A stretch of DNA of 27,443 bases from positions 1 through 27,443 of IMG/VR virus record IMGVR_UViG_3300034521_000267; one strand, given 5' to 3'. The position numbers were made by a program, and so were the translations under genes. This document shows, one piece after another, positions 655-22,850 of this stretch (positions are counted from its first letter, which is position 1; the number at the start of each line of letters is the position of its first letter). The DNA is from a virus. Its lineage: Duplodnaviria; Caudoviricetes. Under the pieces are notes generated by a model, which did no database searches, was not told the DNA's origin, and worked only from the letters and a program-made list of their open reading frames with translations.

Positions 655-676
655 AGCTCATCTCTCATGAGTTCGT

Positions 677-1048
677 TTAGCTGACCGTCACGTCTACGGT
701 TATCTCGACAGATTCCCCGTTGCTGTACACTTTGTCGGCTGTCAGAACGTGCCTTAAGAGCATCGTGCCTGCGCTGGGAGCATTGAATATCCCGATCTCT
801 CTTATGGTCACGGCTCCTGTGAAATTGAAGGTGTTTACAAATCGGGCCTTGTAGTCCGCTACATAGCTGCAGGTTGCTGCTGCCCTGCCTGAACCATTGG
901 CCGTGTTCTCGGTCACAAGTGCTGTCTGTGTGGCTGCCTCTGCTGTGCTTCCGCTTCCGGTAGCCATATAGGTGAAGGCTGCCACTGAGTCCACACCGTT
1001 AAGCAGCTTGGCGACTGCCAGTTTTCCTGCGTTGGTTATTGTTGCCAT
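677..1048 (-). CDS. Tail-collar/fibre-type structural protein
   Basis: ITNAGK...YMATGSG...TALVTE...IREIGIFNA...GTML pattern is typical of phage tail-collar fibre N-terminal-like proteins. Confidence 0.7.
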   Translation of the reverse strand: MATITNAGKLAVAKLLNGVDSVAAFTYMATGSGSTAEAATQTALVTENTANGSGRAAATCSYVADYKARFVNTFNFTGAVTIREIGIFNAPSAGTMLLRHVLTADKVYSNGESVEITVDVTVS

Positions 1049-1177
1049 TTAGTTTCTCAACTCCGTTGTTATTTCCCGGCCATCCGGGAACACTTCTGTT
1101 TTCTCAATCGGTACGCCCTGTGCGTCCTTACGGACCAGGGTAATCTTTTCCACTTTAGCATTAGTCGCCGTTATCAT
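1049..1177 (-). CDS. Small hypothetical protein (42 aa, MITATNAKVEK...)
   Basis: ATGA overlap with the upstream stop. Its stop abuts the next ATG. Confidence 0.6.
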   Translation of the reverse strand: MITATNAKVEKITLVRKDAQGVPIEKTEVFPDGREITTELRN

Positions 1178-1515
1178 GTAGTGTCCCTCTTGAATGTGAT
1201 ATTGTAAGTGTACTTCCCGCTTCCGAAGATGATCTCCTTGTAGGAGAACGGCGGGGATATGTAGCAATTTTGATAACTTGTCCCATCTATCACCAACGTT
1301 TTGGGCTGGCCAATCTTCCCCAAGAGCGTGGTGATGTCTGCAAAATCCTCAGTGTAACATTTGTATGACCTGACGAACTTCGGCTCAGCCAGTGCATCAA
1401 TAGCAGTCTTACCGCTCAACAGAAGAGTTTCCTGGAACTCGAAGTCAACATTGATTTCATTCCTCTCCAGGATATCCAGTGTGAAAGAATCGAATACAAC
1501 TACAGTTTCGCTCAT
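1174..1515 (-). CDS. Putative distal tail (Dit-like) protein
   Basis: 113 aa, immediately downstream of the tape measure, ATGA-coupled. Confidence 0.55.
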   Translation of the reverse strand: MSETVVVFDSFTLDILERNEINVDFEFQETLLLSGKTAIDALAEPKFVRSYKCYTEDFADITTLLGKIGQPKTLVIDGTSYQNCYISPPFSYKEIIFGSGKYTYNITFKRDTT

Positions 1516-4514: not shown

Positions 4515-4801
4515 TACGCACCTCTCTTGATAGCATTTCCATAGATTGCCCGGAACTTAGCAAGGTCTGGTTCATCTCCCACGAGTGTTTCGGGATTTTC
4601 CTGCTCTTGTTTCTGGTCCATTGCCTTACCGAGCACAGACCAGAACACCTTGGCCTGCAGCTCGATTCCTTTGACGCCCTTCTCATAGTACATCATAGCC
4701 TGTTCCAAGGACATCTCATCAAGGATGTAGTCAGGAGAAGCCCATGAGTACATCATTCCGAGCTGGGCGAAGATGTCTCCGATGGTGAGGGTAAGTTTTT
4801 T
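4514..4801 (-). CDS. C-terminal part of frameshifted tail assembly chaperone (gpGT-like)
   Basis: The -1 frame is open from the slippery site through KLTLTIGDIFAQLG into MMYSWASPDYILDEM... up to the tape measure start. Confidence 0.85.
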   Translation of the reverse strand, partial: KKLTLTIGDIFAQLGMMYSWASPDYILDEMSLEQAMMYYEKGVKGIELQAKVFWSVLGKAMDQKQEQENPETLVGDEPDLAKFRAIYGNAIKRGA

Positions 4802-5145
4802 TCTGTGCCTTGCCTGGCTTCCATAGCCTTGAGTCGGGCAGTCACCGGCTCCATGACAAATTGTGCAAATTCAACGAGGGTGAACATGTCCACGTTGTCG
4901 ATGAGCCAGTCTTTTGTTATTTTAGGATTGGATCTCTGACAGGCGATTGCCACCACCTCAAGGAGATCCTCGATTCCCTGGCCAGACTCAAGAGCAGCCT
5001 GCTTCTCCGGAGATGATGTGAGCTCTATGAGCTTCAGGGTTGCACGGGTAGAGAATACAGAGACATCAACCTCTTCCCCTGCTATCCTGGCGATCCTCTT
5101 CTGAGGGACCACCGTACCAAAGTCCTTCAGAATATCAGATGACAG
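4753..5145 (-). CDS. Tail assembly chaperone (gpG-like), probable CTG start
   Basis: Frame is open upstream of the annotated GTG (5112) to CTG at 5145 (LSSDILKDFGTVVPQKR...), 3 nt after the tail tube stop. Confidence 0.75.
   Translation of the reverse strand: MSSDILKDFGTVVPQKRIARIAGEEVDVSVFSTRATLKLIELTSSPEKQAALESGQGIEDLLEVVAIACQRSNPKITKDWLIDNVDMFTLVEFAQFVMEPVTARLKAMEARQGTEKNLPSPSETSSPSSE
4795..4801 (-). other. Programmed -1 ribosomal frameshift slippery site A AAA AAC
   Basis: GAA AAA AAC near the chaperone 3' end fits X XXY YYZ, at the canonical position between tail tube and tape measure genes. Confidence 0.85.
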
Positions 5146-5148
5146 GGA

Positions 5149-5943
5149 TTATGCCCCCTGTTCATCGTATATCTCGAAGAGCTGGTCGCCGACTGGCCTT
5201 GTGACGTCCAGGACTCCCTTCATCTTCAGGTGTGGCATTGCAGGGTCGTCGTCGTCATCTGCAGGGAACTCGATGTTCTGGCCTTCGTTGACTGTGGCCT
5301 TGTAGAGAGTGATCTGGAACTTCTTGCCATTCTCATCGGTGTTTGTGATCCTTACCACCCTGTCAGCGATCGCTGTCTTGCCACCACTCTTGAGCGTGAC
5401 AGCTGAGTTCGGGGTGTAGGTATAGTCCACCAGTACACCTTCACCAGAGGATATCACGGTTGAGCCGCTCACCCTGGCAATTGTGGTATATCCAGCACTG
5501 TCCACAGCAATCACGTAGTCGGTGTTCCGGACAGCTGCATTGCCGCTGGCATCAGTCACAACGATGTTGCTGACCTCTGTGCCGTTTCCGTTCCGGTGGT
5601 TTAGCCTCACGGATGCGGTTCCGGTGAGAGTATGTGCCTCATTCTCGACGTTTATGGGCGTGCCCGCTACAGTTGCATAGGTGTCCAGACCACCTCTGAT
5701 GGTGTTGAGGTTCGCTAAATTGACCTCCATCATGTCACATTCTATGAATGCAACGTGCTCCTTGACGCCGACCTTCACGACACCCGCATTGTCGCTCTTG
5801 ACCTCCACGTCCTCCCATTCTTCTTTGAATACTGCGTTCCGGACTGCTCCGATATCGACAAGCGTTGCTACTGAGGTGCCTACCTCAAGTTTTCCGGAAC
5901 CGAATCTTATGGTTCCGGCATTCTGTACTGTGGTCTGTGCCAT
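5149..5943 (-). CDS. Major tail tube protein
   Basis: 264 aa, IRFGSGKLEVG N-terminus, internal beta-rich insertion. Located between tail terminator and chaperone. Confidence 0.85.
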   Translation of the reverse strand: MAQTTVQNAGTIRFGSGKLEVGTSVATLVDIGAVRNAVFKEEWEDVEVKSDNAGVVKVGVKEHVAFIECDMMEVNLANLNTIRGGLDTYATVAGTPINVENEAHTLTGTASVRLNHRNGNGTEVSNIVVTDASGNAAVRNTDYVIAVDSAGYTTIARVSGSTVISSGEGVLVDYTYTPNSAVTLKSGGKTAIADRVVRITNTDENGKKFQITLYKATVNEGQNIEFPADDDDDPAMPHLKMKGVLDVTRPVGDQLFEIYDEQGA

Positions 5944-5955
5944 TTTGATGTCTCC

Positions 5956-6339
5956 TTATGGTGGAAAGTGAATTACTTTGAAATCGACAGGTACGTGATA
6001 GAGGCCTGTCTCGTCCTCAATTGCATCAAGTGAATTGACGTATACAATCCTCTTGATGTGGTTTCCAGATGCTATCCCCTTGTAGCGTTCCAGGCAGGAT
6101 ATGACTGCCTCTGACAGGTCCTGTACTATCGCGAAGGATCCTGCCCAGCACGAGACCTGGTATCGTGGAGTGCCGTGGCCGGTAATGTGGTCACGTGGTC
6201 CACTGATCTTGTGAATGGTCAGTGCCGGCAGAGTGGCGTTGAGCGGCATCTTCAGTGGATATATTCGGCTGTCAACAATAGCCCGGACTGCATTGTCATT
6301 ATACAGCAGTGTCCGAATGGCGCCATGCAAGGAGGTCAT
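5956..6339 (-). CDS. Tail terminator/completion protein (DUF3168-like)
   Basis: LYNDNAVRAIVDSRIYPLKMP...RYQVSCWA pattern and gene order. Confidence 0.85.
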   Translation of the reverse strand: MTSLHGAIRTLLYNDNAVRAIVDSRIYPLKMPLNATLPALTIHKISGPRDHITGHGTPRYQVSCWAGSFAIVQDLSEAVISCLERYKGIASGNHIKRIVYVNSLDAIEDETGLYHVPVDFKVIHFPP

Positions 6340-6770
6340 GAGTACCTCCTGATCACCTGTTCGAGCTTCTTGGCAATGGCCTTCTCGATCTCGTCTGTAT
6401 TCTCGTCGAGAGCTGGCCTCAAGAAAGGTCTGGGTTGTTGGTTGTATCGCCTGCCGATCTTGTCAGTGTCCATGAACCCATATTCCAATCTGCGAGCATA
6501 CTCCATTGAGGACCCTACAGCCATCTCGCATCTCTCGTCCGTTTTTTTGATGACCGCAGGACTAACCTCGGCTATGTTCCGAAACAGGTTACCTGTGACG
6601 CGGTTCGGGAAATCACCGCCTTTTGCGGAGTTCTCCTGAGCTTCGCGGACCACGACCATTGCACCCGCTGAAGTGGCTTCCTCGAGGACATCTGAGATAT
6701 CCTTGCCGAGGGCATCCAGCTTCTTCTCGAGCTCCTTCACTCCACTGACGGTCATTTTGAACATGGTCAT
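6336..6770 (-). CDS. HK97 gp10-family tail component
   Basis: VSGVKELEKKLDAL...TGNL...YARRLEYG...PRPFLRPALD motifs. ATG at 6770 overlaps the upstream TGA and follows GGAGG. Confidence 0.9.
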   Translation of the reverse strand: MTMFKMTVSGVKELEKKLDALGKDISDVLEEATSAGAMVVVREAQENSAKGGDFPNRVTGNLFRNIAEVSPAVIKKTDERCEMAVGSSMEYARRLEYGFMDTDKIGRRYNQQPRPFLRPALDENTDEIEKAIAKKLEQVIRRYS

Positions 6771-7045
6771 CCTCCTGAAAAAGACACTAGGAATCCAAGC
6801 ACCTGCAGAGCAACAAGCACAACGAATCCAATTGCTGCATTCCTCCCCAGCCATTTGTTCTGCTGGTCCTCGAGTGCCCGGATTCTCTCTTCATGATCAT
6901 CGACCGGGCATCTTCCCAGATCACGGATCGTTTTGTCATGCTCGTTGATGCGGTAATTGATCTGGTCAATGGAGGCTCTGATATGCTTGACGTCGTTGCG
7001 CGTTTCGATGATTTTGTTATAAGTATCGGTGTCTATTTCGGTCAT
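6767..7045 (-). CDS. Coiled-coil protein with C-terminal transmembrane helix (XhlA/holin-like)
   Basis: Heptad-like N-terminus (HEERIRALE) then hydrophobic AAIGFVVLVALQVLGFLVSF. Confidence 0.6.
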   Translation of the reverse strand: MTEIDTDTYNKIIETRNDVKHIRASIDQINYRINEHDKTIRDLGRCPVDDHEERIRALEDQQNKWLGRNAAIGFVVLVALQVLGFLVSFSGG

Positions 7046-7395
7046 TATTCCACCGCCTTGAGGTCACATTCATAGTGGTGCAGGGTGTTTGAGAACATCC
7101 AGAAGATTGGCTTCACGGCAGTGACAGTATACCTTTTTGAGAAGCCGGGTACTGTGCTTGTGATGACCTGTCCTTCTGCAATTGATGTGACTGCAGGCAG
7201 TATCACAGCCGGAGTAGCAACCAGATACTTCCCGCTTTCTGGGTCTATTAGCCCGCTTTTGCTGTTGTTGTGGAAAAATCTACACGGAGAGCTCGTAGAT
7301 GTTTCTGTATATATAGGTTCACCGTACTCATTCTGAGAGGTCTGTGTCCTGCTCACAATACTGCAGGTGTGAACCATCCCGGTATCGCTTACCAT
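7045..7395 (-). CDS. Head closure (stopper) protein
   Basis: HTCSIVSRTQTSQNEYGEP...HHYECDL pattern; follows the adaptor gene. Confidence 0.75.
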   Translation of the reverse strand: MVSDTGMVHTCSIVSRTQTSQNEYGEPIYTETSTSSPCRFFHNNSKSGLIDPESGKYLVATPAVILPAVTSIAEGQVITSTVPGFSKRYTVTAVKPIFWMFSNTLHHYECDLKAVE

Positions 7396-7397
7396 GT

Positions 7398-7781
7398 TCA
7401 ATCTCCTTTGTTCACCGTTTTGACTCCGGCCCGGCCATAGAGTACAGAGTATCCCGAAACAGAGAACCTGTACTGCTTCATGTACTTCTCAGCGGCCTTC
7501 TCATGCTTCTCGATATCAACATCCACACTGTTGGACTGCGACTCGCTGCCGAACTTGACCTGTTGGGCCAGCTCTCCGGTGAACTTCATCTTCTGGAGAG
7601 TCATGGCAGCTGCAAGGTGAGTACATGCCAGAACAAGCCGGGTATCTGTCGAACTGGAACTACAACCTGTTGTAAGAACAACAATGCTCTCAGCATGGGA
7701 GATGATGTTCCCAATGTCAGTATCTGTGAGGGTTTTTGGGTCCACTATTGCTCTGACGTCTGCAGCTGTACATAGGGCCAT
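7398..7781 (-). CDS. Head-tail adaptor/connector protein
   Basis: Helical 127-aa protein starting LCTAADVRAIV, located after the capsid block. Confidence 0.75.
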   Translation of the reverse strand: MALCTAADVRAIVDPKTLTDTDIGNIISHAESIVVLTTGCSSSSTDTRLVLACTHLAAAMTLQKMKFTGELAQQVKFGSESQSNSVDVDIEKHEKAAEKYMKQYRFSVSGYSVLYGRAGVKTVNKGD

Positions 7782-7782
7782 A

Positions 7783-7998
7783 CTATCTGTCCTCGATTTT
7801 CCTCAACAGAGTGAATGATTCGCGGCCGCCCTGGGTAAATCCGACTACCCGGACAGTGTTGTTGGCAGGATCTACATGGATGTGTATGGAGTGCGTGCCA
7901 TCGATACCTGTGGCAGACTGCTCCCACGATTCCCCTGTGGGAGCAGGATCCTCATCTGATATGAGTGCCACGTATGCTACGATGACACGCTTGTCCAT
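7783..7998 (-). CDS. Hypothetical protein
   Basis: 71-aa ORF tightly packed in the operon. Confidence 0.55.
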   Translation of the reverse strand: MDKRVIVAYVALISDEDPAPTGESWEQSATGIDGTHSIHIHVDPANNTVRVVGFTQGGRESFTLLRKIEDR

Positions 7999-8001
7999 GT
8001 T

Positions 8002-8211
8002 TTACGCCGCCGTCTTTTTGCTCTTGAATTTCTTCTGCTCATCGGGTGGCATTGGTTCCTGTTCGGGTATGTCAGGAATGATCTGAACCGAATTACCGAG
8101 GCGAATTGCTCTCTCCTCGGCACACTCAAATTCCTCTTCTCTCCTGAACTTCATCTCCTTGCCGTCGATATCGATTGCAAGATGACTTACTTTGACCTTA
8201 ACACGAACCAG
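8002..8211 (-). CDS. Small protein downstream of the capsid gene (69 aa, CTG start; missed by the ORF track)
   Basis: GAGGTGA-TACA-CTG GTT CGT GTT AAG... open to TAA at 8002. Fills an otherwise empty 220-bp gap and is in frame with the capsid gene. Confidence 0.75.
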   Translation of the reverse strand: MVRVKVKVSHLAIDIDGKEMKFRREEEFECAEERAIRLGNSVQIIPDIPEQEPMPPDEQKKFKSKKTAA

Positions 8212-8220
8212 TGTATCACC

Positions 8221-9087
8221 TCAGATTGAACTCAGCCTGCAGATTGCGTTTGCCTGCTTGATCCTCAGGATACCTGCAGAGTACACACGACCGTAGAGAT
8301 CTCCTGTGTCAGGGTGCTTGGAGTCCACACCATGCTCGGTCCTGAAGTCAGATGTCAGGTAGAAGTCAACGTATGGTTCTCCAACTGCAGCAGTGGGTGC
8401 TATGAATCCCGTACCAGCTGTGAGGGCATTGCTGGAGAAGATACCTCCACCGTTGAGCATGTCAAGGATATCTTGCTTTTCCCTCAGACCGTTGGCGTTA
8501 CGGACAGACATGAGCTGCTGATACTGGGTGCTTGCCAGGCACAGGTTGAATGGCAGGCTGTCCACTGGGATGCCATCGTCATCCATGAGCTCATATGCAC
8601 CGGCGAGGGCTGTGGTTGCTTTCCCGAATGTAGCAAAGTCCTGGGTCGTGGAGTAGTCGTTTCCTGCGCCTTGGTAGAGGCCATTGATGTCATAGTTGGT
8701 GCCATCGTTGGTAACTCCCATGATGATTGCAGTGTCCTCTGCCTTTGCTGCCTTGTATGCGGCTGAGAGTGCAGATGCGGCATCGACATCAATATTCTTG
8801 GTCTGCCAGCTTTCATATATGCGTCTGTCAACGAGGTAGTCCTTCCAGTAGACTGGGACCTTGGAGTTCGTGAGAGCCACTTCGATCTTGTCGACATTTC
8901 CATCACGGAAGCCATATGATACCAGACCGTCACTGACGTCGGTGACCTTGCCCCAATCTACTGAGGTGATGCCGAAGCCCTTTGCCGGTGTGACATATAC
9001 GAGCTTTCTTCCTTTCAGGACGTTCCTAAGCGGGTCAACCAGCTTGGTGTCCATGTCTTTTGAGAATGCTGCGAGTGCGTTTGTCAT
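8221..9087 (-). CDS. Major capsid protein, HK97 fold, encapsulin (linocin M18)-like
   Basis: LRNVLKGRKLV...VPVYWKDYLVDRR...DAASALSAAYKAAKAEDTAIIMG resembles family 1 encapsulins. Follows the protease and decoration genes. ATG at 9087 lies 5 nt after GAGGTGA. Confidence 0.85.
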   Translation of the reverse strand: MTNALAAFSKDMDTKLVDPLRNVLKGRKLVYVTPAKGFGITSVDWGKVTDVSDGLVSYGFRDGNVDKIEVALTNSKVPVYWKDYLVDRRIYESWQTKNIDVDAASALSAAYKAAKAEDTAIIMGVTNDGTNYDINGLYQGAGNDYSTTQDFATFGKATTALAGAYELMDDDGIPVDSLPFNLCLASTQYQQLMSVRNANGLREKQDILDMLNGGGIFSSNALTAGTGFIAPTAAVGEPYVDFYLTSDFRTEHGVDSKHPDTGDLYGRVYSAGILRIKQANAICRLSSI

Positions 9088-9097
9088 ATTTTTCACC

Positions 9098-9628
9098 TCA
9101 GATGAGACTCCTTACGACGATGTCAGCAGCTGCACTTGAAGCATCCACTGACTGTTCTGCGATTGCCACGATGACGCCCTGTGTACCGAGTGAACCGGTG
9201 ATTATGGGGCCATTTGCTGCACTGGATGTCACTTGCGTTGCACCAGTTGCCACTGACAGTGCAGTTGCTGCTATGAGTTCACCGTTTGCAGCTCCAACGA
9301 GTGGCGTGCCTTTGGTCACGTTCTGACCGGATGCCAGCCTGCCTACAACGAAGAAACCGCCGCCGTTCAGGACAGGTGCCATATCGTTCTGGGCATAGAT
9401 TGTGTCGACATCAGCTGGCATGAATACCGGGTTTGCCTGCTCGTATCCGAGCCAGCCTATTGCTGCGCCTCCTGCGGTGTTGACGACAATATCACCATCG
9501 TTTGTGCCCTTCTTGACGAGCCTGCCCGGATACATGTTGGTCGCATTCTCAACCTTCAGTTCCTGGACCAGAGGATTTCCGCCTGCCACAATTTTATTAT
9601 TGGGTTTTACAACGCCTGAGTATGCCAT
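9098..9628 (-). CDS. Capsid decoration/cement protein
   Basis: 176 aa, Gly/Ala/Val-rich, between protease-scaffold and capsid genes. Confidence 0.65.
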   Translation of the reverse strand: MAYSGVVKPNNKIVAGGNPLVQELKVENATNMYPGRLVKKGTNDGDIVVNTAGGAAIGWLGYEQANPVFMPADVDTIYAQNDMAPVLNGGGFFVVGRLASGQNVTKGTPLVGAANGELIAATALSVATGATQVTSSAANGPIITGSLGTQGVIVAIAEQSVDASSAAADIVVRSLI

Positions 9629-9629
9629 T

Positions 9630-10547
9630 TCAGATCACCCATTCTTTCTTGGTTGGATCCCATCTTCCGACTGTTCCGGAGCCAGGGTTGCTTGGATACG
9701 TTACATGAGATCCAGCTGAGAGCTTGATCTTGCTGAATTCATCAGCCATCTTCTCGACATCTGCGGCAGTAAGTGTCTGATAGTCCTCTGCTTTTGTTTC
9801 GAGGCCGAGGTCCTTCCTGGCTGCTACGAGTTTCTCAAAGGCTGCGGTCTTTGCAGTTTCTGCTTTATACTTCTCAATCTCAGCAGCCGCGATCTTCTGG
9901 CCTTCGGATGCCACAAGTTTCTGAACCTCTTCGACAGGCATTCTCTTGGATACTTCTCCTTCGAGGGACGCAACCATCTGTTTGAGGCCGTCTATCTCTT
10001 TCTGCTTGAGAGCGAGCTGCTCTGCAAGCTCGGTGGATGTTTCCCCACCGGCTGGTGTTTCAAGTGCTTCAGTCATGATATCATCTACCGCTTGTATTGA
10101 AAAAACGTTAAGTGAGTGAATCCCCAGTGATTCACCGTCAGCTGCAACAACTTCCCAACTGGCATTCCCCCAAGCGGGGTTTGTGACCAGTGTGAGAGAA
10201 CGGGCATTAATGCCGCTCACCCATCCATCTTTTAGAGATGATGCTTTGGAGTAGACACTCCATTTCTTGGGCCATGTGCCTTCCTGGATCTTCTGTGATG
10301 CTACAGAATCAGTGATATCCGCACGAGCTTTGATCTCCTGACCTTCCTTCCAAGCATCGAGGACTCTGCCAATCTCAGCTTTAGGATCTTCAGAATAGTC
10401 GCACCCATGTGGGGAATCACGGGGGCATACCCTTATCACAGCGTTTTTGAGAGAGGAGATAGCGTTATCTGCTTCTGAGGCGGGTACGCCCCAGCCGTTT
10501 TTGTTGAGTTTGTCTAATGGAAAGGCTACGCCCTCAATAATTACCAT
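9630..10547 (-). CDS. Prohead protease fused to scaffold-like coiled coil
   Basis: IEGVAFPLDKLNKNGW...H...IGRV...WSV...LTLVTNPAW (HK97/U35-like protease signature) with a charged helical C-terminal half. Confidence 0.8.
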   Translation of the reverse strand: MVIIEGVAFPLDKLNKNGWGVPASEADNAISSLKNAVIRVCPRDSPHGCDYSEDPKAEIGRVLDAWKEGQEIKARADITDSVASQKIQEGTWPKKWSVYSKASSLKDGWVSGINARSLTLVTNPAWGNASWEVVAADGESLGIHSLNVFSIQAVDDIMTEALETPAGGETSTELAEQLALKQKEIDGLKQMVASLEGEVSKRMPVEEVQKLVASEGQKIAAAEIEKYKAETAKTAAFEKLVAARKDLGLETKAEDYQTLTAADVEKMADEFSKIKLSAGSHVTYPSNPGSGTVGRWDPTKKEWVI

Positions 10548-10560
10548 TAGATAATGTTGA

Positions 10561-10596
10561 GTGTATACTACTAGTATAAAAACTTTATATGGAAAA
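10561..10596 (-). promoter_or_regulatory. Late promoter copy 1 (TATA plus palindrome TATACTA-C-TAGTATA)
   Basis: 35/36 identical to 13544-13579. TTTATA box on the - strand about 30 nt upstream of the protease ATG, implying a near-leaderless transcript. Confidence 0.8.
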
Positions 10597-10616
10597 ATTG
10601 CAGAATGATAGACAAT

Positions 10617-11873
10617 TCAATCTCTCCTTAGAATGAAATTTCCGTTTCTTTCTTTCACTACCCATTCGCTGATCTGCTTCTTGTTTCTCTTTGCTGCATT
10701 CTTAATATCTTCCTTCACATATCTGGATATTTTCATGATCTGGGACCACTCAATATACAACTGTTCCCCGCTGTCTAATTTGATATACCCGCCTGTTTCG
10801 GAATTGCCCTTAATATCCACAATGTTAATTATTTTGTTTTGGTAGGGTTTAAGAGCCCCGTTTGACAACTGTTGCCGTGTTTCGAATGGTATTTCTATTG
10901 TTGGTGCTTTGTTGTCGATTGAATCAAACACCTCCTGCATACTAGTGATAGGGTTGCCTTTCACATCAACTAAGCCCGTTCCTTTCTTTGTGGGTGCTAG
11001 TTTCAGTATTATATCCAAATCCGGCCCGCTAACACCAACACTCACACCCTTCTCAAGCATGATCCTGGCGGCCAGGTCCTGGTCGATGACATATTGAGAG
11101 ATCCTGTACTTCTCGTTGAACTTCTCGATGTTTCCAAAAGCCTTTGCGATATCTTCGGGATCATCCAAGGTGCCGGAGAAATCACGATTCTCAAAGAGCT
11201 TGTTTTCATCAATTGTTCGAGTAATCGGTATCGGCCGGAGACCAGATCGGCAGCGGTGGTGCAACGGAGGACGATATCTATCAACACTGTCCTTAGAAAG
11301 GTCAAATATCGTGCCATCGAGACATCTGCACTGGTCGGTTGTCCTGTCATCCAACTCCGCATCGAACTCCATGTACTCAACGCCATACTGCCTGTAGCGG
11401 TGTACGGTGGTAGCGGTGGCAACATCTGCTGTGAATGTCTGAGCGAACGCGACTGCTTTGTACCGCTGGCCATCCCAGAGGTCATCGATCCTCTTGGCCA
11501 GTTCGTACGGGTGCTTGTAGTATATTGCATCGTCCTTGAGCATCCTAACTATTGCTTCAGATGCTTTGTCGGATATCTCCCCGGATATCCTGACAGCCTC
11601 TTCGGTCAGGATATGGGACTCTTTGACCGTTGCAGCTGACAGCTTCTTCATCTGGCCATCTGCATACAGAAGTGACTGCCTGATTATCTCGGTGATAATC
11701 TTGTCCAGCTGCAAGGCGAAAGTGCTCGAACCGAACCACTGCCTGACATTCCAGGGCAGTTCTCTTTCAAAATCAAGTGTCCTTGTCTTCGCTGCTTTCT
11801 CAAAAGTCCTGTCAAATAGAGCAATGAGCCTGCTTTCTGCTTGCAGTATCGGACGAGATCTCAGCAGTGTCAT
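10617..11873 (-). CDS. Head morphogenesis protein (SPP1 gp7/MuF family) with C-terminal extension
   Basis: DDRTTDQCRCLDG...PPLHHRCRS signature. Likely start ATG at 11873. Confidence 0.9.
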   Translation of the reverse strand: MTLLRSRPILQAESRLIALFDRTFEKAAKTRTLDFERELPWNVRQWFGSSTFALQLDKIITEIIRQSLLYADGQMKKLSAATVKESHILTEEAVRISGEISDKASEAIVRMLKDDAIYYKHPYELAKRIDDLWDGQRYKAVAFAQTFTADVATATTVHRYRQYGVEYMEFDAELDDRTTDQCRCLDGTIFDLSKDSVDRYRPPLHHRCRSGLRPIPITRTIDENKLFENRDFSGTLDDPEDIAKAFGNIEKFNEKYRISQYVIDQDLAARIMLEKGVSVGVSGPDLDIILKLAPTKKGTGLVDVKGNPITSMQEVFDSIDNKAPTIEIPFETRQQLSNGALKPYQNKIINIVDIKGNSETGGYIKLDSGEQLYIEWSQIMKISRYVKEDIKNAAKRNKKQISEWVVKERNGNFILRRD

Positions 11874-11874
11874 A

Positions 11875-11952
11875 TTAAGGGAAGTAGACTGCAAGAATAC
11901 CCATAATAACGATCCAAGCAACGCCTATCATAAGGGGGACGTGGGGTTTCAT
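11875..11952 (-). CDS. 25-aa single-pass membrane peptide (MKPHVPLMIGVAWIVIMGILAVYFP)
   Basis: ATGA overlap with the portal stop. TAA lies 1 nt before the MuF ATG, so it fills the gap exactly. Confidence 0.6.
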   Translation of the reverse strand: MKPHVPLMIGVAWIVIMGILAVYFP

Positions 11953-13184
11953 TTCTTACCCTCTACAGGAAATCCTCCCCACTCCAGCAGCTGCTCTTTT
12001 GACAGTACACCTGTATTGAACCACTCGAGGACATCCCTTGACTCCATCTTAGGCTTGCTGAGCTCGTCAAACTCGACCCAGACACTGCCCTCTGGTTTTC
12101 CAAGTAGCTTCAGCCTTTTTTCGACTACCTGCTGCACAATGTTCCGGACAACCTTCTGCAGGCCTTCCAAGGCAACCATGCGGTCTTCTTCGGATACATA
12201 GCCAGCTGCATAGGTCGAGCCTTTGGTGTCACCCATCGACAATGGCGTTTGGAAAAGGCCTATCTGGATATCCGTTTCAAGTGATTTTTTGAAGGCCATC
12301 ACATCAAGAGATCCATTGGCATCGATCGGGACAACGCTCATCCCTGCGCCAACAATGTCCTCGTTGGCTTTCAGGTTCTTGTGCTCCTCAAGCCAGGCAT
12401 CGATTGCTTTCTGAGCATCCTCTATAGTAATGATCTCCTGTTCCACGAGCTTCTCAAGCAGTGCAAAATTGAAGACATAGCGTCCATTGCCGTATTTCTG
12501 CACGAATGAAACATATCCATGGTTGATGTTCAGCAGGTTCCGGATGGAAAGCTCTATGGGATCCAGGAGCGACGTGCCATATATACCATAAGTATCCCGG
12601 CCCAGTATGTCCCTCTGTACACCGTCCCATGCGTTGAGGGTGCCATACACGACATCTTCTGGTTTGAGAATAGCACGCTTAGCTGCATCGGATTCATTGA
12701 CTATGATCATGGTGACAGGTGGCGTGATAATATCCTTGGTGCTGCTTTTGCCGAGCTGATCATCAGATGTGATAAGCGTGACTGCCGGCATTAGCAAGGG
12801 CACTAGCCGGAATATGGGAGCATCTCCTGATGTCTGGGCCAGGTACACACCATCCCTGCAGAGCAGTCTGGCCAGTGTCTGGACCTGCTCAAGGAAATTG
12901 ACTTTCATGCTCCATGTTTCAAACTCTTCAACGTCTGCAGCTGAGTTGCCATCAAAGCGCATTCCCTTGGTCAAGGACAGGCCCAGTTTGATAAGGCTGG
13001 TAGATACATGAGGAGAAGCAACGGCCAGTTCCTGGTAATACCTGAACCTGTTGCTGGTATCAAAGTTCAGGTATCCTCCAAATGAGGTAGAGGTATCCGC
13101 CCGGGTAACCCCGGTTGATGCCGCCAGAGTTAGAGCCTTTTTTGGCTCTGCCTGGGCTGCGTTGAGCTCCATATATGGCCTCAT
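11949..13184 (-). CDS. Portal protein
   Basis: 411 aa between terminase and MuF genes, with YGTSLLDPI and IQIGLFQTPLSMG...STYA motifs. Confidence 0.85.
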   Translation of the reverse strand: MRPYMELNAAQAEPKKALTLAASTGVTRADTSTSFGGYLNFDTSNRFRYYQELAVASPHVSTSLIKLGLSLTKGMRFDGNSAADVEEFETWSMKVNFLEQVQTLARLLCRDGVYLAQTSGDAPIFRLVPLLMPAVTLITSDDQLGKSSTKDIITPPVTMIIVNESDAAKRAILKPEDVVYGTLNAWDGVQRDILGRDTYGIYGTSLLDPIELSIRNLLNINHGYVSFVQKYGNGRYVFNFALLEKLVEQEIITIEDAQKAIDAWLEEHKNLKANEDIVGAGMSVVPIDANGSLDVMAFKKSLETDIQIGLFQTPLSMGDTKGSTYAAGYVSEEDRMVALEGLQKVVRNIVQQVVEKRLKLLGKPEGSVWVEFDELSKPKMESRDVLEWFNTGVLSKEQLLEWGGFPVEGKK

Positions 13185-13381
13185 AGGTGCTTCTTGATTA
13201 GTTCGCGAACTTCGGCTACCGTGATCTTACCGTCACCCATGGCTGCTAATGCATCATCGATAGCTTCTTTCTTTTCATCAATGGTTTTGTTCTTCCACCA
13301 AAGCTTTGCATGGATGACTATACCTGTGCCTACCCCTATCAGTAGTGTTCCAGCATGTGTGAGAAACGCGGTGTCTGTCAT
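13181..13381 (-). CDS. Small membrane protein (holin-like)
   Basis: AGGAGA SD before ATG 13381. One N-terminal TM helix followed by a charged tail. Confidence 0.6.
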   Translation of the reverse strand: MTDTAFLTHAGTLLIGVGTGIVIHAKLWWKNKTIDEKKEAIDDALAAMGDGKITVAEVRELIKKHL

Positions 13382-13543
13382 GATTATTTCTCCTTTGACA
13401 CATGTTCGCCGCACCACTCGTCATAAGGGACTACAGGAAAACCAACTTTCGCAACCGGTGCACTACGTCTGCAGTGACCAAATGTGACAGCCAGGGGCTT
13501 GAAAAAAGTGCATGTCGAACACGTGTCGTTCATGCGTGTAGGG

Positions 13544-13579
13544 GTGTATACTACTAGTATAAAAAGTTTATATGGAAAA
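13544..13579. promoter_or_regulatory. Late promoter copy 2, potentially bidirectional
   Basis: GTGTATACTACTAGTATAAAAAGTTTATATGGAAAA has TATA-like boxes on both strands. The - strand faces the portal operon and the + strand faces the mini-CRISPR. Confidence 0.8.
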
Positions 13580-13597
13580 CAATCGACGCAACATTAT

Positions 13598-13827
13598 CAC
13601 GCTGAAGTAAGAAGACCACCGTTTTTAAACGGTGGATGAAGTATCTAATGCAAAAATCATATTCAAAAGCAAGATCCACTAAAACAAGGATTGAAACTCA
13701 GAAGCTCAGGACAGTTCGTGTAGTTCTGAAGTGATTCAAAAGCAAGATCCACTAAAACAAGGATTGAAACGTCGTTGGATTCGATGATGAAGCAGGAAGC
13801 CACCATATGAATAGGGTGGTAGTTCAC
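13598..13827 (+). mobile_element. Non-autonomous IS200/IS605-like element (no tnpA/tnpB) carrying a mini-CRISPR
   Basis: Left-end hairpin CCACCGTTT-TT-AAACGGTGG (13616-13635) followed by ATGAA. Right end GAAGCAGGAAG-CCACC...GGTGG-TAGTTCAC ends in TCAC. Left boundary uncertain (after TTAT 13597 or TCAC 13600). Confidence 0.7.
13661..13770 (+). CRISPR. Mini-CRISPR array: two identical 37-nt repeats and one 36-nt spacer
   Basis: ATTCAAAAGCAAGATCCACTAAAACAAGGATTGAAAC at 13661-13697 and 13734-13770. Spacer TCAGAAGCTCAGGACAGTTCGTGTAGTTCTGAAGTG. The repeat ends in ATTGAAAC and resembles Methanosarcina repeats. Confidence 0.93.
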
Positions 13828-14033
13828 ACATCCCTCTCTTTTTGTTTCTCCATGATCTTAGTTGCAATTTCCTCTGCAAGTACATCACTCTTATGCTTGA
13901 TGCTTTCGTTATCCGAATAATACTTTGCAAGGTAATCAATGGCTCTGCTCTTGCTGCAGCTCTGCTCTTTCATGACACGGTGCACTATTGAAAGTGTTTC
14001 CCCGCTGAGGGTAAGGCATTGTTTTGATCTCAT
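13824..14033 (-). CDS. Small ribbon-helix-helix-like DNA-binding protein
   Basis: QCLTLSGETLSIVHRVMKEQSCSKSRAIDYL fits a beta-helix-helix pattern. Confidence 0.6.
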   Translation of the reverse strand: MRSKQCLTLSGETLSIVHRVMKEQSCSKSRAIDYLAKYYSDNESIKHKSDVLAEEIATKIMEKQKERDV

Positions 14034-14035
14034 GA

Positions 14036-15361
14036 CTACCTCGCTTTGGTTCTGATAAGTTTTGATAAGTCCATTTTCTGCGGTCCAAACTTTGATTTAC
14101 TGAGCTCCGATATGGCCCATACAAGAGCATCCACCCTATCCGGACTCTTGCATTCACCGGGCACCCACTCACACATTTGATCCTCAAGTGCAGGGAAAGA
14201 CCCGACGTGATGACATTTCCCTTGTTCATACAGAGCGCTGATAGGTTCAGCCCTGACCTGTTTCCCTCTGCTGGCCCGGACAGACCTGTAAGATACTAGA
14301 GGGTCAATTGTCCGAAGAGTATACTCCACCAGCTCGCCGCCGTTATTGACCTCACCAATGACACTGTCAGCAGAATGCTTGTAATAGGCAGCAATGACTT
14401 CTTGGGCCCATTTCTTCGGAGTTGTATGGGTCGTATAATCGCCCAGGACATAGTAGTGTTGCTTCTCATCCATTCCAGCGACAACGATCCCTGTATCGTC
14501 TGCGGATGATGAGGATGTGACTGCAGGATCCACTCCCACGACTATCCTGACCAGCTCTGGAGTTTTCGTTACCCTGTTATCCTCGATCACATCTCTGGTC
14601 CAGAGGGCTTCCGGATTGTCGTCAAGGATCTCTGCGTTGAGCTCCTGTCTCCCCAATCGGGTTCCTTCGTATCTACTGATGATCACGTCGATGAAAGCTG
14701 GTGCCAGGTTGGACAGGTTCTCGTAGGTGGACCCTTTGGTCACATGAGTGCTGGAATCGTTCAGGATGTTCTTGACAAGTGGAATGGGTCTTGGGGTTGT
14801 GGTGACGGCCACCCTCGGATCATCTCCAAGTCTCAGGCCAAACTGCAGCATGTCCCAGGTTTTTTCTGGATACTTCCAGGCAGCTATCTCATCACACCAT
14901 GCAGTGTCACATTGAGGACCTCTCAGTCTGTCCGGCTCTTCTGCAGAGAACAGAAGGGCCATTGCACCGCTTGGCCATGTCAACCTTCTCTTTGATGGCT
15001 CATAGACAGGCTCATTCCAAGGAGGACATACTGAAAGGATCCCGGAATCTCCCTCTACCATAGTATCCCTGGCATCTGCAGATGTTGGAGCTACAAGGTG
15101 AATACGTCTGGCTTTACCGGACTCTACTCTTTCCCGGATCCATTCAGACCCCACTCGAGTTTTTCCCCATCCTCTGCCCGCACATACTAACCAGTATCGC
15201 CAGTTGCCTTCCGGAGCTAGTTGGTTAGGCCTGGCCCAGAACTTCCAGTCATACTCCAGCTGGAGGATCTCCTCATCCGTGAGCTCACTGAGGATTTTGT
15301 TCCTTTCCGATTCTGGCAGCGATGCTATTGATTCGGCTAGTGATGCGTTCTCTTGCTTCAG
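14036..15361 (-). CDS. terL: Terminase large subunit (441 aa from a CTG start)
   Basis: Walker A AGRGWGKT lies upstream of the annotated GTG (15154). Also LRGPQ..AWCDE (Walker B) and VGVDPA...SPDRVDALVWA nuclease motifs. The frame opens at GAGGTGA-ACATAT-CTG. Confidence 0.93.
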   Translation of the reverse strand: MKQENASLAESIASLPESERNKILSELTDEEILQLEYDWKFWARPNQLAPEGNWRYWLVCAGRGWGKTRVGSEWIRERVESGKARRIHLVAPTSADARDTMVEGDSGILSVCPPWNEPVYEPSKRRLTWPSGAMALLFSAEEPDRLRGPQCDTAWCDEIAAWKYPEKTWDMLQFGLRLGDDPRVAVTTTPRPIPLVKNILNDSSTHVTKGSTYENLSNLAPAFIDVIISRYEGTRLGRQELNAEILDDNPEALWTRDVIEDNRVTKTPELVRIVVGVDPAVTSSSSADDTGIVVAGMDEKQHYYVLGDYTTHTTPKKWAQEVIAAYYKHSADSVIGEVNNGGELVEYTLRTIDPLVSYRSVRASRGKQVRAEPISALYEQGKCHHVGSFPALEDQMCEWVPGECKSPDRVDALVWAISELSKSKFGPQKMDLSKLIRTKAR

Positions 15362-16247: not shown

Positions 16248-16706
16248 TCAGTGCGTTTCCATATAGCGTTTTAGTCGGCTGTTTCGGTGTGTTCTCACGA
16301 CTCTCCGAATTGTGCCAACCGGGATATCCATATCCTCGGCTATCTCACGATAGCATCTCATGTTTGCTTCTCGGAGGATCTTCTCCCTCTCGTCGGCTGT
16401 CAGGTCCTGAATAGTCTTTGGTCTCACCTTCGAAGCATGATAAGTTCTGATGTGTCGCATGAAAGGACCGAACACTTTGACCTGCATTGCTGAGTAGTCT
16501 GCCAGGATATACACATGGGGAGGTGAGCCTGCTGGGACATGGAGTTCCACACGATATGGGGATTCTGGGCCTTCGTAGGACTTGATGACCCACTCACCTT
16601 TCCACACTCCTGAGGGGTCATAGCGGTCTTCTATGAGTCGGCGAGCTTTCCAGATGGTTGCATTCATCTTGCGCTCGATTCCGGTGGTGAAGGTGGGGCA
16701 GGTCAT
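16248..16706 (-). CDS. Protein with C-terminal HTH (candidate late transcription regulator)
   Basis: CYREIAEDMDIPVGTIRRVVR resembles a sigma-region-4-type HTH. Confidence 0.65.
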   Translation of the reverse strand: MTCPTFTTGIERKMNATIWKARRLIEDRYDPSGVWKGEWVIKSYEGPESPYRVELHVPAGSPPHVYILADYSAMQVKVFGPFMRHIRTYHASKVRPKTIQDLTADEREKILREANMRCYREIAEDMDIPVGTIRRVVRTHRNSRLKRYMETH

Positions 16707-19477
16707 AGGGAGCCCTCCACGAGTCCGGGTTGGTCAGGATGTTTTACAGCCCGGTTGACATATTTTTGATAGCATTCATGGCAACGGTGTTCTGTCTGGC
16801 CATTTATTAGGATAGATTTGTTGAGAGCTGGGGAGGATCCACAGTCTACACAATGGGCTTGTGTTTGCTCACCTTCTGTGTCCAATGGACCAGACATCGG
16901 TCTTTCGGTGGATATCTTAGCATACCGTCTAATGATATCATTAACTTCAGTAAACTTGTCAGAAGGCACACTATACCTCTTGCAGTATTCCATTGCCACA
17001 TGAGTCACATTGAGGTGATTGATGCTCTTTTTGTGTGATGATTCCCATTGTGGCGCCCAAGCCAACAAGTGTTCCAGCATAGCGGTGTTACCCATATTAT
17101 CGATATCATGCGGGGGCGCCGATGCGCTGTTACCAGCGATGTTACTACCACTGTTACCTCCTTTTTCACTATCAGTCGAACCGCTGATACCACTGATACC
17201 CTGTTTTGACTTTTGTGTACGTAAAGAATCAGACTTCTCGGTTTTCACACAATTCAGTGTTTTTTGCCGCACTCTATCTATATTGGTATCAGTGGTATCA
17301 GTGTGTCTATTGTTATTGTTTATGGAGGTATCAGTGGGGGTATCAGTCGGGTAACAGTGTGTATCACCCGCATCTAGAGACACCACCGAGTCAAACATTC
17401 CAAGGGCGTCGAATTTATCGAGTTTTAGATATGTCTTCAGTGTTTTGTGCCCCGCAGAATTCTCAACTATTCTTTTTTCAACATAGAATCCCTCAACTTT
17501 ATGGAGGAGGCCAGCATCTTTGTTTCTGTCCTTTCCATAAATTAGATGTGATACTCTACCCACGGATTTCCCCAGAGCCTTGGCGATTTCTTCCCGGGTA
17601 GCTTCTCCCCTGCCAGCAAGTACCATACATAGCCGCATTTCCGCATCACTTAGCTTTAGTCCCTGGTTCCCCGCCCTCCCAGTATATAGTGCCTTGGCAT
17701 CATTGAAGTCTTGGACTTCTGCTATTAAGGCGCCTTCATGGTCTTTCTGCCTTTGTCTATGTCGAAGAACGGTATATCCCCTCAGGATATCCAGGAAGAT
17801 AGAATAATTTCTGCGGTTCCTGGTATCTCTCCATGTAATTCTTTCTACGAAAGGGATTTTCACAATATAATTGCTTGACTTTATGTCCCGGAGGATCTCT
17901 CTGCAGATCAGTACGTTATCGTTCAGGGGTAGGCCAACTTCACCAGATGCGGCCTTTTTTGACAGGAACTCCACAACCTTTCTATCCTGTTCCTCTGATT
18001 CGTCCACGCCCCCGCCGAACTGTCTGTTTAGCAGCTGCAGGCTTTGGTCGTCGTCCACCGAAGTGAGCCACCAAGATATCCTGGAGGGTATCCTCTTTGT
18101 TTCCTCTCTTCGCTTAATATCCAATGTGGTGTATGTGGTTCCCGTCTGAAAGTTGGAGGTCGCACGCTTGATTACGCCTTCCAGTGTTTCAGATAAATCA
18201 ATATCATCACAGAAGATGATACTGCCATCCTTCAGCCCCTTCATGTAAAAAATGGCCTTGTCTGATAGCGTTGTTTCAAAAATCCATTCAGGTGGCACAA
18301 GGTGTGCCATGGCTTTGCAGCAGTGTGTCTTTCCTTTACCAGACTCCCCGCTCACCTTGGGCTGGATGCCGTCCGCGTTTAGAACCGACTGAACGCCAAC
18401 GGATACTAGTAAGGTCTTAGCAAGTTCGAGGTCCCCCACGTGCAGAGACTGATGAGTATCAAGGATAAACTGAACTGGATCTCCCCCCTCGGCTATCGCG
18501 GCCGCTGCCTCTTTTATTTGAGAATCAATCTCATCGACTCCGTCATCTTTTTGTGAGATGTATTCTTGTTCCCGCGGATTCACAGGTGCCTTCTCTCTGT
18601 CTATATGGAACTGTGATAAGACGGGGTGTGCCTTTATAGACTCGGTTGTTGCCGTTGCATTGGGGTTGATTTTATCGATCTGGTATGCCGACATTTCCGC
18701 ATCATAATCATCCATGAAGATTAACATACACAGCAGCATGAGCTCTTGCTTTGTTGCTCCGTTCCTCGAAAGTTCGGCAAACAGATGAAGTGTCAGCTCT
18801 CGACCGGATGCGCCATGGAAAACCGACATGTCCCTAAAATGTGGGTTGCTCTTTTGGTTATCGGTGAAGTGTGCCTTAAAGAACTTCTGGAAAGTTGGCC
18901 TGCATTTGTTTACTTTTGACTCAAGCGAGGACAATGTTTTGGTTACCTCTTTAATTCTGACCACTGCCTCTTCTGGAAGATGGGGTCTTTCTGTGGGGTT
19001 TTTGTTGAACTGATACTTGGCTCCGGAGACATGCTCCGACGGGGTGATCACAACATTGGATCCGTTGTTAAGCACTTCAAAACCAAGTGCATGGTGCTTC
19101 ATAGAATCAATTATAGGTGAATAGTTGAACCATAAATGATCACGCCCGGTGGTTCTGGACTGAATTACAAAGTCAGTTGTATCAATCCCCTCAAAAATAT
19201 AGTCCCATATCCCTTTACAGATAAAATCCCGGTCAATCACGGTCACGTCTGATACTTGACCACATACGTTCCCGATATTGCACCTATTATTTTTAAAGTA
19301 CTTTACCTTATCCCGGTCGGAGAGTGGTTTATAGTTGCTCCAGTCTTCCAGAAGTGGCCTTTTGCCTGGGCTGTTTCCATGGTCATCTGGCCTCGAGAGT
19401 GGATGAGGACACATGCCTATGCTCTCATAGTAGTCAACTGCTTCCGGAAGAGACATGTCATTAACTGGAGCAGTCAT
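16703..19477 (-). CDS. Replication protein: bifunctional primase-polymerase domain, P-loop helicase-like ATPase, winged helix and C-terminal Zn finger
   Basis: GKRPL...NIGNVCG...VIDRD...H.WF...VVITPS.H.SG..Y (prim-pol), Walker A GESGKGKT, Walker B IIFCDD, TREEIAKALGKSVGRVS HTH, and CVDC...CHEC. Confidence 0.88.
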   Translation of the reverse strand: MTAPVNDMSLPEAVDYYESIGMCPHPLSRPDDHGNSPGKRPLLEDWSNYKPLSDRDKVKYFKNNRCNIGNVCGQVSDVTVIDRDFICKGIWDYIFEGIDTTDFVIQSRTTGRDHLWFNYSPIIDSMKHHALGFEVLNNGSNVVITPSEHVSGAKYQFNKNPTERPHLPEEAVVRIKEVTKTLSSLESKVNKCRPTFQKFFKAHFTDNQKSNPHFRDMSVFHGASGRELTLHLFAELSRNGATKQELMLLCMLIFMDDYDAEMSAYQIDKINPNATATTESIKAHPVLSQFHIDREKAPVNPREQEYISQKDDGVDEIDSQIKEAAAAIAEGGDPVQFILDTHQSLHVGDLELAKTLLVSVGVQSVLNADGIQPKVSGESGKGKTHCCKAMAHLVPPEWIFETTLSDKAIFYMKGLKDGSIIFCDDIDLSETLEGVIKRATSNFQTGTTYTTLDIKRREETKRIPSRISWWLTSVDDDQSLQLLNRQFGGGVDESEEQDRKVVEFLSKKAASGEVGLPLNDNVLICREILRDIKSSNYIVKIPFVERITWRDTRNRRNYSIFLDILRGYTVLRHRQRQKDHEGALIAEVQDFNDAKALYTGRAGNQGLKLSDAEMRLCMVLAGRGEATREEIAKALGKSVGRVSHLIYGKDRNKDAGLLHKVEGFYVEKRIVENSAGHKTLKTYLKLDKFDALGMFDSVVSLDAGDTHCYPTDTPTDTSINNNNRHTDTTDTNIDRVRQKTLNCVKTEKSDSLRTQKSKQGISGISGSTDSEKGGNSGSNIAGNSASAPPHDIDNMGNTAMLEHLLAWAPQWESSHKKSINHLNVTHVAMEYCKRYSVPSDKFTEVNDIIRRYAKISTERPMSGPLDTEGEQTQAHCVDCGSSPALNKSILINGQTEHRCHECYQKYVNRAVKHPDQPGLVEGSL
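17127..17367. repeat. Two oppositely oriented clusters of short iterons (CTGWTAC / GTAWCAG); candidate replication origin
   Basis: CTGTTAC/CTGATAC-like at 17127, 17139, 17151, 17184, 17193 and GTATCAG/GTAACAG-like at 17286, 17295, 17328, 17340, 17351, 17361, flanking a T-rich core. Confidence 0.7.
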
Positions 19478-21956: not shown

Positions 21957-22850
21957 ATGTCACTAAAACTTGAAAAAGATAAGATCATACCAGTACTGCT
22001 GCAAAACAAGGCACTTAAAGTCAACGAGAATGTCTACTCACTACTCATCGATGGCGTGAAGTGTGGCATTGACTTCAAGAAGAATGAAATGTTCTGGATG
22101 GATGTTGCAGACAGGTCCACAGAGGACTGTCCGGAGTTCAGCAAGTTCAAAGCACTGTGTTTGGGTGCAATGTTTCCAAAGGGTGGTGAACAGTCTTCCT
22201 CTGAGGCCCCGGAAGCCGACCAAAGCACAGAGGCGGAGAAGGAAGAGAAGTCCACCGAACCAGAATACGAGCCCCCGACAAACCAATCTTTTGTTCCAGC
22301 TCCAGCTCCCCGCAGGCAGGTAGCACAGGCCAATCATCAATACACCCGGGACCAGATAGAGACCATCAAGGACACCGTGGCCAAGGGCATCAGTGACAGT
22401 GAGCTGCAGATGTTCCTGCATATTGCCAACACCTACGGTCTGGATCCATTCCTCAAGGAGATCTTCTACTCCGAGCAGATGAAGACCATCATTACAAGCA
22501 GGGATGGGTATCTGAAGGTTGCTCAGAGAGATCCTGAATTCGATGGTATCCAGTCAATGGCCGTCTGTGAGAATGACGAGTTCTCAATTGACATGGAGAA
22601 GAACAAGGTCAACCACTCTTTTGGGAAAGGAGGCAGAGGCAAGGTCATTGGTGCTTGGGCTGTCTGCTATAGGAAGGGGAGAAGGCCAGTCATTGCATAT
22701 GCTGATTATGAAGAGTACAACAAGAAGAATCCCATCTGGAACACCTACAAGAGTGCAATGTGCTGTAAGGTTGCGGAGGTTTTCGCGCTCAAGAGGCAGT
22801 TCGGGATATCCGGACTTGTGACACAGGAAGAGATGGGGGTGGAGGCATGA
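21957..22850 (+). CDS. Single-strand annealing recombinase (Bet/RecT family)
   Basis: YGLDPFLKEIF...SRDGYLKVAQR.PEFDGI...GAWAVCYRKGR...MCCKVAEVFALKRQFGISGLVTQEEM, preceded by an extra N-terminal domain and acidic linker. Confidence 0.9.
   Translation: MSLKLEKDKIIPVLLQNKALKVNENVYSLLIDGVKCGIDFKKNEMFWMDVADRSTEDCPEFSKFKALCLGAMFPKGGEQSSSEAPEADQSTEAEKEEKSTEPEYEPPTNQSFVPAPAPRRQVAQANHQYTRDQIETIKDTVAKGISDSELQMFLHIANTYGLDPFLKEIFYSEQMKTIITSRDGYLKVAQRDPEFDGIQSMAVCENDEFSIDMEKNKVNHSFGKGGRGKVIGAWAVCYRKGRRPVIAYADYEEYNKKNPIWNTYKSAMCCKVAEVFALKRQFGISGLVTQEEMGVEA

Follow-up and report, generated by a model that had tools for sequence, protein, structure and literature searches.

A viral genome that carries two CRISPR repeats and a single spacer raises three questions: how the unit reached the virus, what its spacer is aimed at, and what use it could be to its carrier. 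We addressed them in a stretch of 27,443 nucleotides, here called the window, in which such an array spans positions 13661–13770. Its parts are the following.

13661–13697, plus strand: CRISPR repeat 1, DR7 family, type I-B/III.
13698–13733, plus strand: spacer, 36 nucleotides.
13734–13770, plus strand: CRISPR repeat 2, identical to repeat 1.

The two 37-nucleotide repeats are 100% identical, lie at a spacing of 73, and each score 56.4 bits against the Rfam model CRISPR-DR7 (threshold 37), confirming the repeat and spacer lengths reported by a first-pass annotation made from the sequence. That annotation had found no long self-match of the spacer, and the window indeed holds none at three or fewer mismatches, the best other site matching at 22/36. 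Its suggestion that the self-complementary spacer ends could affect loading over-read the sequence: the predicted folding energy is -9.8 kcal/mol (z -1.78), 12 of 200 shuffled sequences are equally stable, and the complementarity is inherited from the target sequence. A spacer hairpin as a design feature is thereby rejected.

The array is a genuine part of the virus. Logan contigs of run X1 cover it with no differences and span both outer junctions; both junctions are bridged again in run X2, and the left one in run X3. These contigs rule out a chimeric assembly, for which the annotation had asked that reads be examined; runs X1 and X2 may themselves be source samples of the record. The same array is present in a second IMG/VR record.

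The window virus is a circular assembly of 27,256 bp, as given by a 187-nucleotide terminal direct repeat, and is of the head–tail type, with terminase, capsid, tape measure, primase-polymerase and RecT recognised by PHROGs and Pfam profiles. No cas family was detected in its 45 ORFs with PHROGs and Pfam, or in the 15 of them that were also searched with NCBIfam, and six host Cas proteins gave no tblastn match to the window, which bears out the earlier statement that the closed genome has no cas gene. The 45 ORFs scanned include no integrase. The primase-polymerase (16703–19477, 924 amino acids) has a long C-terminal part without a Pfam family, and the tape measure gene contains a 231-bp tandem duplication (2219–2418 and 2450–2649, 84% identical), of which an array-less sibling virus, G001, apparently has one unit fewer.

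Matching of the repeat to host arrays, as the annotation had proposed, gave a single genome among GTDB representatives: in Methanolobus psychrotolerans two arrays carry the exact repeat, and one of them adjoins cas5-cas3-cas6b-cas1-cas2-cas4. By its gene content this cas locus is likely type I-B-like, a label that is likely rather than formal because the Cas5b model gives 89, short of its cut-off of 97. Since the exact repeat is found in these arrays, the host of the window virus is probably some Methanosarcinaceae species, not narrowed further, and the virus likely infects methane-making archaea. One IMG/VR contig (L001, 1492–1529) ends in a host-type leader and a DR7 repeat, and is probably a host fragment.

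The sequence around the array identifies its carrier. The array lies within an insert of 230 bp (13598–13827), and all 120 bases that flank it there are IS605 sequence.

13598–13640, plus strand: IS605 left end with subterminal hairpin; 43/43 identical to an element in genome G108, DNA hairpin z -3.58.
13641–13660, plus strand: tnpB start of the same IS family, 20 nucleotides, exact in genomes G080 and G094.
13771–13827, plus strand: IS605 right end, 57 nucleotides, 55/57 against the G108 element.

BLAST of the array flanks against a host genome gave many matches, which were found to be the ends of tnpA/tnpB elements. The closest parent is the 1651-bp element in G108, which encodes a Y1 TnpA and a TnpB; its first 43 nucleotides correspond to 13598–13640 and its last 57 to 13771–13827. 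The right-end match begins at the first base after repeat 2, and consists of the tnpB tail, the 3′ part of the omega-RNA region, a hairpin and the TTCAC end. Intact copies have these 20 nucleotides of tnpB start about 490 nucleotides beyond the left end; in the insert tnpA has been deleted from between the two. The 20 nucleotides match 6 of 284 genomes at no more than one mismatch, and among the matches listed five are IS copies; three IS copies beyond those in G080 and G094 differ by one mismatch. The order within the insert is thus left end, tnpA deletion, tnpB start, repeat–spacer–repeat and right end, with the array replacing the tnpB interior (about 1.08 kb) exactly at both repeat edges. 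The window contains no tnpA or tnpB ORF. Host genomes carry other internal-deletion derivatives of the same IS605 family, mini-elements of 193 bp (L092, 500–693) and 343 bp (L127), and a related provirus has a terminal-only IS605 hairpin stub between its portal and protease genes (L267, around 1490–1530).

The 63 nucleotides upstream of repeat 1 being IS605 sequence, the 20 nucleotides directly before it were rejected as a leader or a viral spacer stub, as their sequence is the tnpB start. The sequence upstream of the array gave no alignment above shuffled sequences against 32 regions upstream of host repeat runs. Judged by its sequence the array is leaderless, and without a leader the mini-array would be fixed at one spacer.

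The unit is single in the collections searched. Neither junction occurs in any of 177 family genomes, IMG/VR yields only the same virus, and two matches in JGI metagenomes are both plain tnpB ends. No alternative flank of the unit appeared among the contigs listed for runs X1–X4, and searches of genomes, IMG/VR and metagenomes for repeats adjoining IS ends gave nothing further.

The site of insertion can be read from relatives that lack the unit.

13594–13597, plus strand: TTAT target site 5′ of the insert; empty in viral contig L004 and in runs X1, X4, X5 and X6.
13824–14033, minus strand: 69-amino-acid viral ORF, whose stop codon now comes from the IS end, as L004 and a reconstruction of the empty site show.

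Relatives without the insert are L004 and variants in four of the eight runs examined (X1, X4, X5 and X6). The empty allele keeps TTAT 12 nucleotides from the conserved flank, in the same place as the insert, which follows TTAT directly and without target duplication. Such a junction is the signature of IS200/IS605 insertion, as described in the available text of PMC10055086 and PMC3119063. TTAT formerly held the stop codon of the minus-strand ORF; the insertion hit this codon and the IS end supplies a new one, so that the 69-amino-acid protein stays full length. The target 5-mer is ATTAT in the virus and GTTAT at the empty site, and TTTAT in 31 of 34 host left-end contexts. Since excision needed the cognate motif in the experiments available from PMC10055086, ATTAT might lock the unit in place.

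The array is polymorphic in viral populations. Array-less variants reach a depth of about 109–123 in run X1, against 41–52 for array-bearing ones, and are found alone in runs X4, X5 and X6. The array-less variant of X4 is identical to the window over 12800–13577 and shows 15 differences after the site, those listed all falling within 13866–13944. Because this variant is identical before the site and different after it, the sequences suggest that recombination transfers the unit as a block from one virus variant to another. Unrelated genes, 1.9–6.1 kb of them, follow the 69-amino-acid ORF in three related proviruses (L176, 9300–15430; L177, 7860–9750; L178, 9170–14010), so that the place where the array lies is perhaps a hot spot for insertion. 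Comparison of window 14036–15154 with L177, L178 and L165 showed that members of this virus group combine a similar small terminase with either of two large-terminase types, which are interchangeable.

These observations lead to a model for the origin of the unit. An IS605 element would have inserted after TTAT in the virus genome; a segment of a host array would then have recombined into it through neighbouring spacers derived from the IS, replacing the tnpB interior at the repeat edges, and tnpA would have been deleted separately. We give this account about an even chance of being correct. The exchange could have taken place in the virus, or in the chromosome with a later jump, and both fit. 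Treating the flanks as IS-derived spacers is the simplest account because the outer repeat edges abut the IS exactly and in IS order. Each of the 10 IS copies listed has TTA 38 nucleotides upstream of the left junction, which agrees with a left flank that was once the end of a spacer taken from the IS; these copies are homologous, and the TTA counts as one observation. The left junction has a 2-nucleotide microhomology. Several points count against the model: only 77 of 941 host spacers are 38 nucleotides long, none of the 941 matches the IS beyond 14 nucleotides, the IS has TGA, not TTA, on the 5′ side of the right junction, and the target 5-mer is ATTAT in place of TTTAT. Recombination of spacers with phage has been described (Varble 2019, as cited in the accessible part of bioRxiv 2020.10.09.333658), and recombination has been proposed for leaderless arrays, whose origin is called unresolved in the text available for PMC7099407. 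The virus encodes a possible agent.

21957–22850, plus strand: RecT-like single-strand annealing protein (Pfam RecT, 6.9e-31).

This protein, which would perhaps have carried out the recombination, is a candidate both for the capture of the array and for block exchange between relatives.

Two protospacers were found, both in viruses. A 26-nucleotide pattern of the spacer, at up to three mismatches, matched one of 284 Methanosarcinales genomes, within a provirus of G097, where the full protospacer matches at 32/36 directly after TTA (chance about 1.6e-6). The second, in viral contig L187, matches at 34/36, likewise directly after TTA and in the same insert, with the next best locus at 23/36; it was found among the best 80 of 599 loci with the target terminase type, drawn from 18 of the 64 parts of the collection. 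TTA is the PAM of Methanosarcina type I-B systems and of repeats that differ from this one at 2–3 positions, according to the part of PMC8482600 available, when the trailing X given there is taken as the protospacer side. Mismatches fall at positions 7 and 34 in L187 and at 1, 21, 22 and 34 in G097; of these, 1 and 7 are possibly seed positions. The search of viral, plasmid and host sequences with PAM inspection that the annotation had called for therefore supports inter-virus competition, the first of the three functions it had offered.

Both protospacers fall inside the intein of a large terminase. A second ORF overlaps the intein there in another frame and includes the site. It has zinc-ribbon and HNH-like features; the HNH label of the G097 ORF stands at 18.4 bits against a Pfam cut-off of 21.4, which homologues reach. 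The insert is 71% identical overall between the two target viruses, so that the stretch around the spacer site, which codes in two frames, is better conserved. Among eight close loci with this terminase type that were tested, of which L186 and L177 are probably one provirus, the intein is in L187 only. Intein and endonuclease-like ORF overlap on the same strand, the latter in a second frame and with the intein frame open, in L163 (625–3024 and 1229–2197) and L187 (1426–4140 and 2234–3202). A terminase intein with an overlapping ORF is thus common to two viruses with different head modules.

The target viruses differ in their relation to the window virus. The G097 provirus has 18 proteins in common with it (30–66% identity, same order), and L187 mainly the small terminase (67%), with another head module. 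The window virus has a different terminase and lacks the target site. Cutting of the window virus by the nuclease of the target intein is unsupported, the window terminase being of the other type and giving no tblastn match to that of the target, and the array-less sibling G001 was rejected as a target (best 23/36). Scans of IMG/VR with either half of the spacer as an exact seed gave chance matches only (best 27/36); L187 escaped these scans, as each of the two seeds contains one of its mismatches. BLAST of the spacer against phage and plasmid sequences gave nothing credible, and a metagenome scan with the spacer core gave no match, the virus's own records possibly lying outside that scan.

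These results bear on a guide directed at the host itself, in which the spacer would silence a host gene, or repeat 2 and the IS right end would form a second crRNA against chromosomal IS605 copies. The 57 nucleotides after repeat 2 do match host IS ends at 86–96% in many copies, as the second variant would have it. Those copies, though, carry TGA, not TTA, before the right-end sequence, and the first 26 nucleotides of the spacer have no non-proviral match at three or fewer mismatches in the 284 genomes, in a search that covered long matches, as distinct from the short seed-only matches to cas or toxin promoters that would mark a regulatory crRNA-like mini-array (CreA/Cracr type). We consider a host-directed guide highly improbable, and the annotation's second option, host gene silencing, found no support.

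Expression of the array would depend on sequences outside the insert.

13544–13579, no strand assigned: viral promoter/operator-like element, a palindrome with a BRE-TATA match on the plus strand at 13561–13574.
13839–13843, plus strand: oligo-T run, a candidate terminator of the array transcript, as read from the sequence.

The BRE-TATA consensus has four matches in the window against 0.05 expected, and this one lies about 25 nucleotides before the IS605 element. With archaeal promoter spacing, BRE-TATA at 13561–13574 would start transcription near 13598. The 36-nucleotide element is duplicated, with a 97% copy at 10561–10596, and is present in the array-less relative L004. It is older than the array, because array-less relatives have it. 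The first-pass annotation was therefore right that a TATA sequence lies upstream on the plus strand, and wrong in so far as it treated it as the array's own. Both copies consist of a 6-3-6 palindrome beside BRE-TATA, precede minus-strand late genes and match the consensus on the plus strand; the element also occurs on other contigs in runs X1–X6. The duplicated element may be bidirectional or make antisense RNA. From its position it likely drives the array transcript, and perhaps also the minus-strand late genes.

Taken together, we think it probable that this leaderless repeat–spacer–repeat in an IS605 remnant guides the host's type I-B Cascade-Cas3 against co-infecting or resident viruses, by way of an older viral promoter and host Cas6b. 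A transcript would run from about 13598 to the oligo-T run. Cas6b cuts 8 nucleotides before the repeat–spacer boundary (available text of PMC5965381), and cutting by the host enzyme would yield a crRNA with an 8-nucleotide handle, which would direct Cascade-Cas3 to the DNA of intein-bearing viruses with TTA beside the target. DNA targeting by type I-B, rather than RNA targeting by type III, is expected because the spacer has the sequence of the target's sense strand. The outcome would be exclusion of other viruses that co-infect or reside in the host, as heterotypic exclusion has been shown for SPV1 and SPV2 (PMC6858448 and PMC11656645, as far as their text was available). Against this reading count the lack of a perfect protospacer, with mismatches that may touch the seed, the prevalence of array-less variants in X1 and X4–X6, and a promoter that is older than the array and may serve the minus-strand genes. 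It also counts against it that the targets are known from L187 and G097, not from the virus's own samples.

The same promoter could serve a decoy, the annotation's third option: an abundant transcript, including the repeat 2 handle and the IS right-end hairpin, would titrate host Cas6b and Cascade and weaken the immunity directed at the virus itself. The promoter looks strong, and processing would free another RNA that has a handle and, at its 3′ end, a hairpin. Relatives of the virus are CRISPR targets, as 1 of 979 host spacers, from L152, matches the window capsid gene (9052–9087) at 31/36, in antisense orientation to the mRNA and with no TTA. RNA anti-CRISPRs, in the part of PMC11656645 available, are single repeats, whereas this locus has a pair of repeats and its spacer has real targets; by these features it is not a solitary-repeat anti-CRISPR, and decoy activity could be a side effect that is not needed to explain it. 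A pure decoy is quite improbable. Of the annotation's three functions competition is thus supported, host gene silencing is unsupported and a decoy is unlikely; the leaderless state and the IS605 setting it had missed.

The unit might also be a neutral scar, left over when a host array recombined with an IS in the virus, for example in escape repair, that is weakly expressed or useless and drifts. Its polymorphism and frequent minority status would fit, as would the missing leader, the single copy, the imperfect targets and the harmless effect on the 69-amino-acid ORF. Yet both repeats are intact and host-identical, even though two 37-nucleotide direct repeats invite collapse, and about 1.55 kb of the IS was lost while the array was kept. 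The unit also lies directly after a consensus promoter, and its spacer has PAM-flanked viral targets. We regard drift of a useless remnant as unlikely, and competition between viruses as the preferred reading.

A more far-reaching proposal is that the 230-bp unit is a CRISPR guide cassette that host TnpA, acting in trans, could move by peel-and-paste, so that any virus receiving the cassette would be armed. Its spacer, aimed at a homing intein/HNH insert, would then be one guide for every intein-invaded rival. This is unlikely. The unit is built like a PATE, a non-autonomous IS200/IS605 element, but we do not count it among the active ones, as it is found in one copy and not after the exact motif. 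If it were mobile, class 1 CRISPR guides would have a vehicle in IS200/IS605 elements.

Whichever reading applies, the locus still shows, to the left and right of the array, the context of the donor, and so is a readable record of a capture event. It names a testable route of capture, through an insertion sequence, for the leaderless mini-arrays of unresolved origin (PMC7099407, in the part available). It is also a methanogen-virus mini-array with identified PAM-flanked targets, which can be tested in genetically tractable Methanosarcina, and its target is itself a selfish insert common to unlike viruses. It is one instance of an array in IS605 ends, known here from sequence alone; no other description was found in the literature searched, most subscription papers lying outside its reach.

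Several known systems resemble parts of this locus (each source is compared as far as its text was available). Like PATEs (PMC3119063, PMC10055086), the unit has two ends with subterminal hairpins and no inverted repeats, no target duplication, insertion after a TTAT motif, a TTCAC end and no transposase. Unlike them, it carries repeat–spacer–repeat cargo in its 230 bp, has lost most of the omega-RNA region, exists in one copy only, and has the target 5-mer ATTAT in place of the cognate TTTAT. TnpB–CRISPR associations ancestral to Cas12 (PMC10691335) likewise join a CRISPR array to IS605 near the omega-RNA end. The present locus has lost the tnpB interior, and its DR7 repeat is of the class 1 Cas6 type and not derived from omega-RNA; with no intact tnpB and an Rfam DR7 repeat, it is by these features not a TnpB–Cas12 intermediate. 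Pickup of a repeat–spacer unit by phage AP1.1 (bioRxiv 2020.10.09.333658), and the recombination of Varble 2019 as cited there, also move host repeat–spacer units into virus genomes. The partner in the present case is apparently IS605, neither an integrase nor an attP in the repeat takes part, and the product is a fixed mini-array.

The closest likeness is to the mini-arrays of SPV1 and SPV2 (Medvedeva 2019, PMC6858448), which also have one spacer, a host-identical repeat and no cas genes, and whose spacer targets other viruses and not the carrier. SPV1 and SPV2 have a host-like leader; the window array is without one, as are the leaderless phage mini-arrays (Faure 2019, cited in PMC6858448 and PMC7099407). 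It differs from both in being enclosed in IS605 ends and in belonging to a virus with a probable methanogen host, and it is aimed not at the nearest array-less sibling but at a mobile intein/HNH insert found in viruses whose head modules differ. In the core features compared, all read from sequence, the array takes its place among virus-borne mini-arrays of competition, as one of the leaderless kind.
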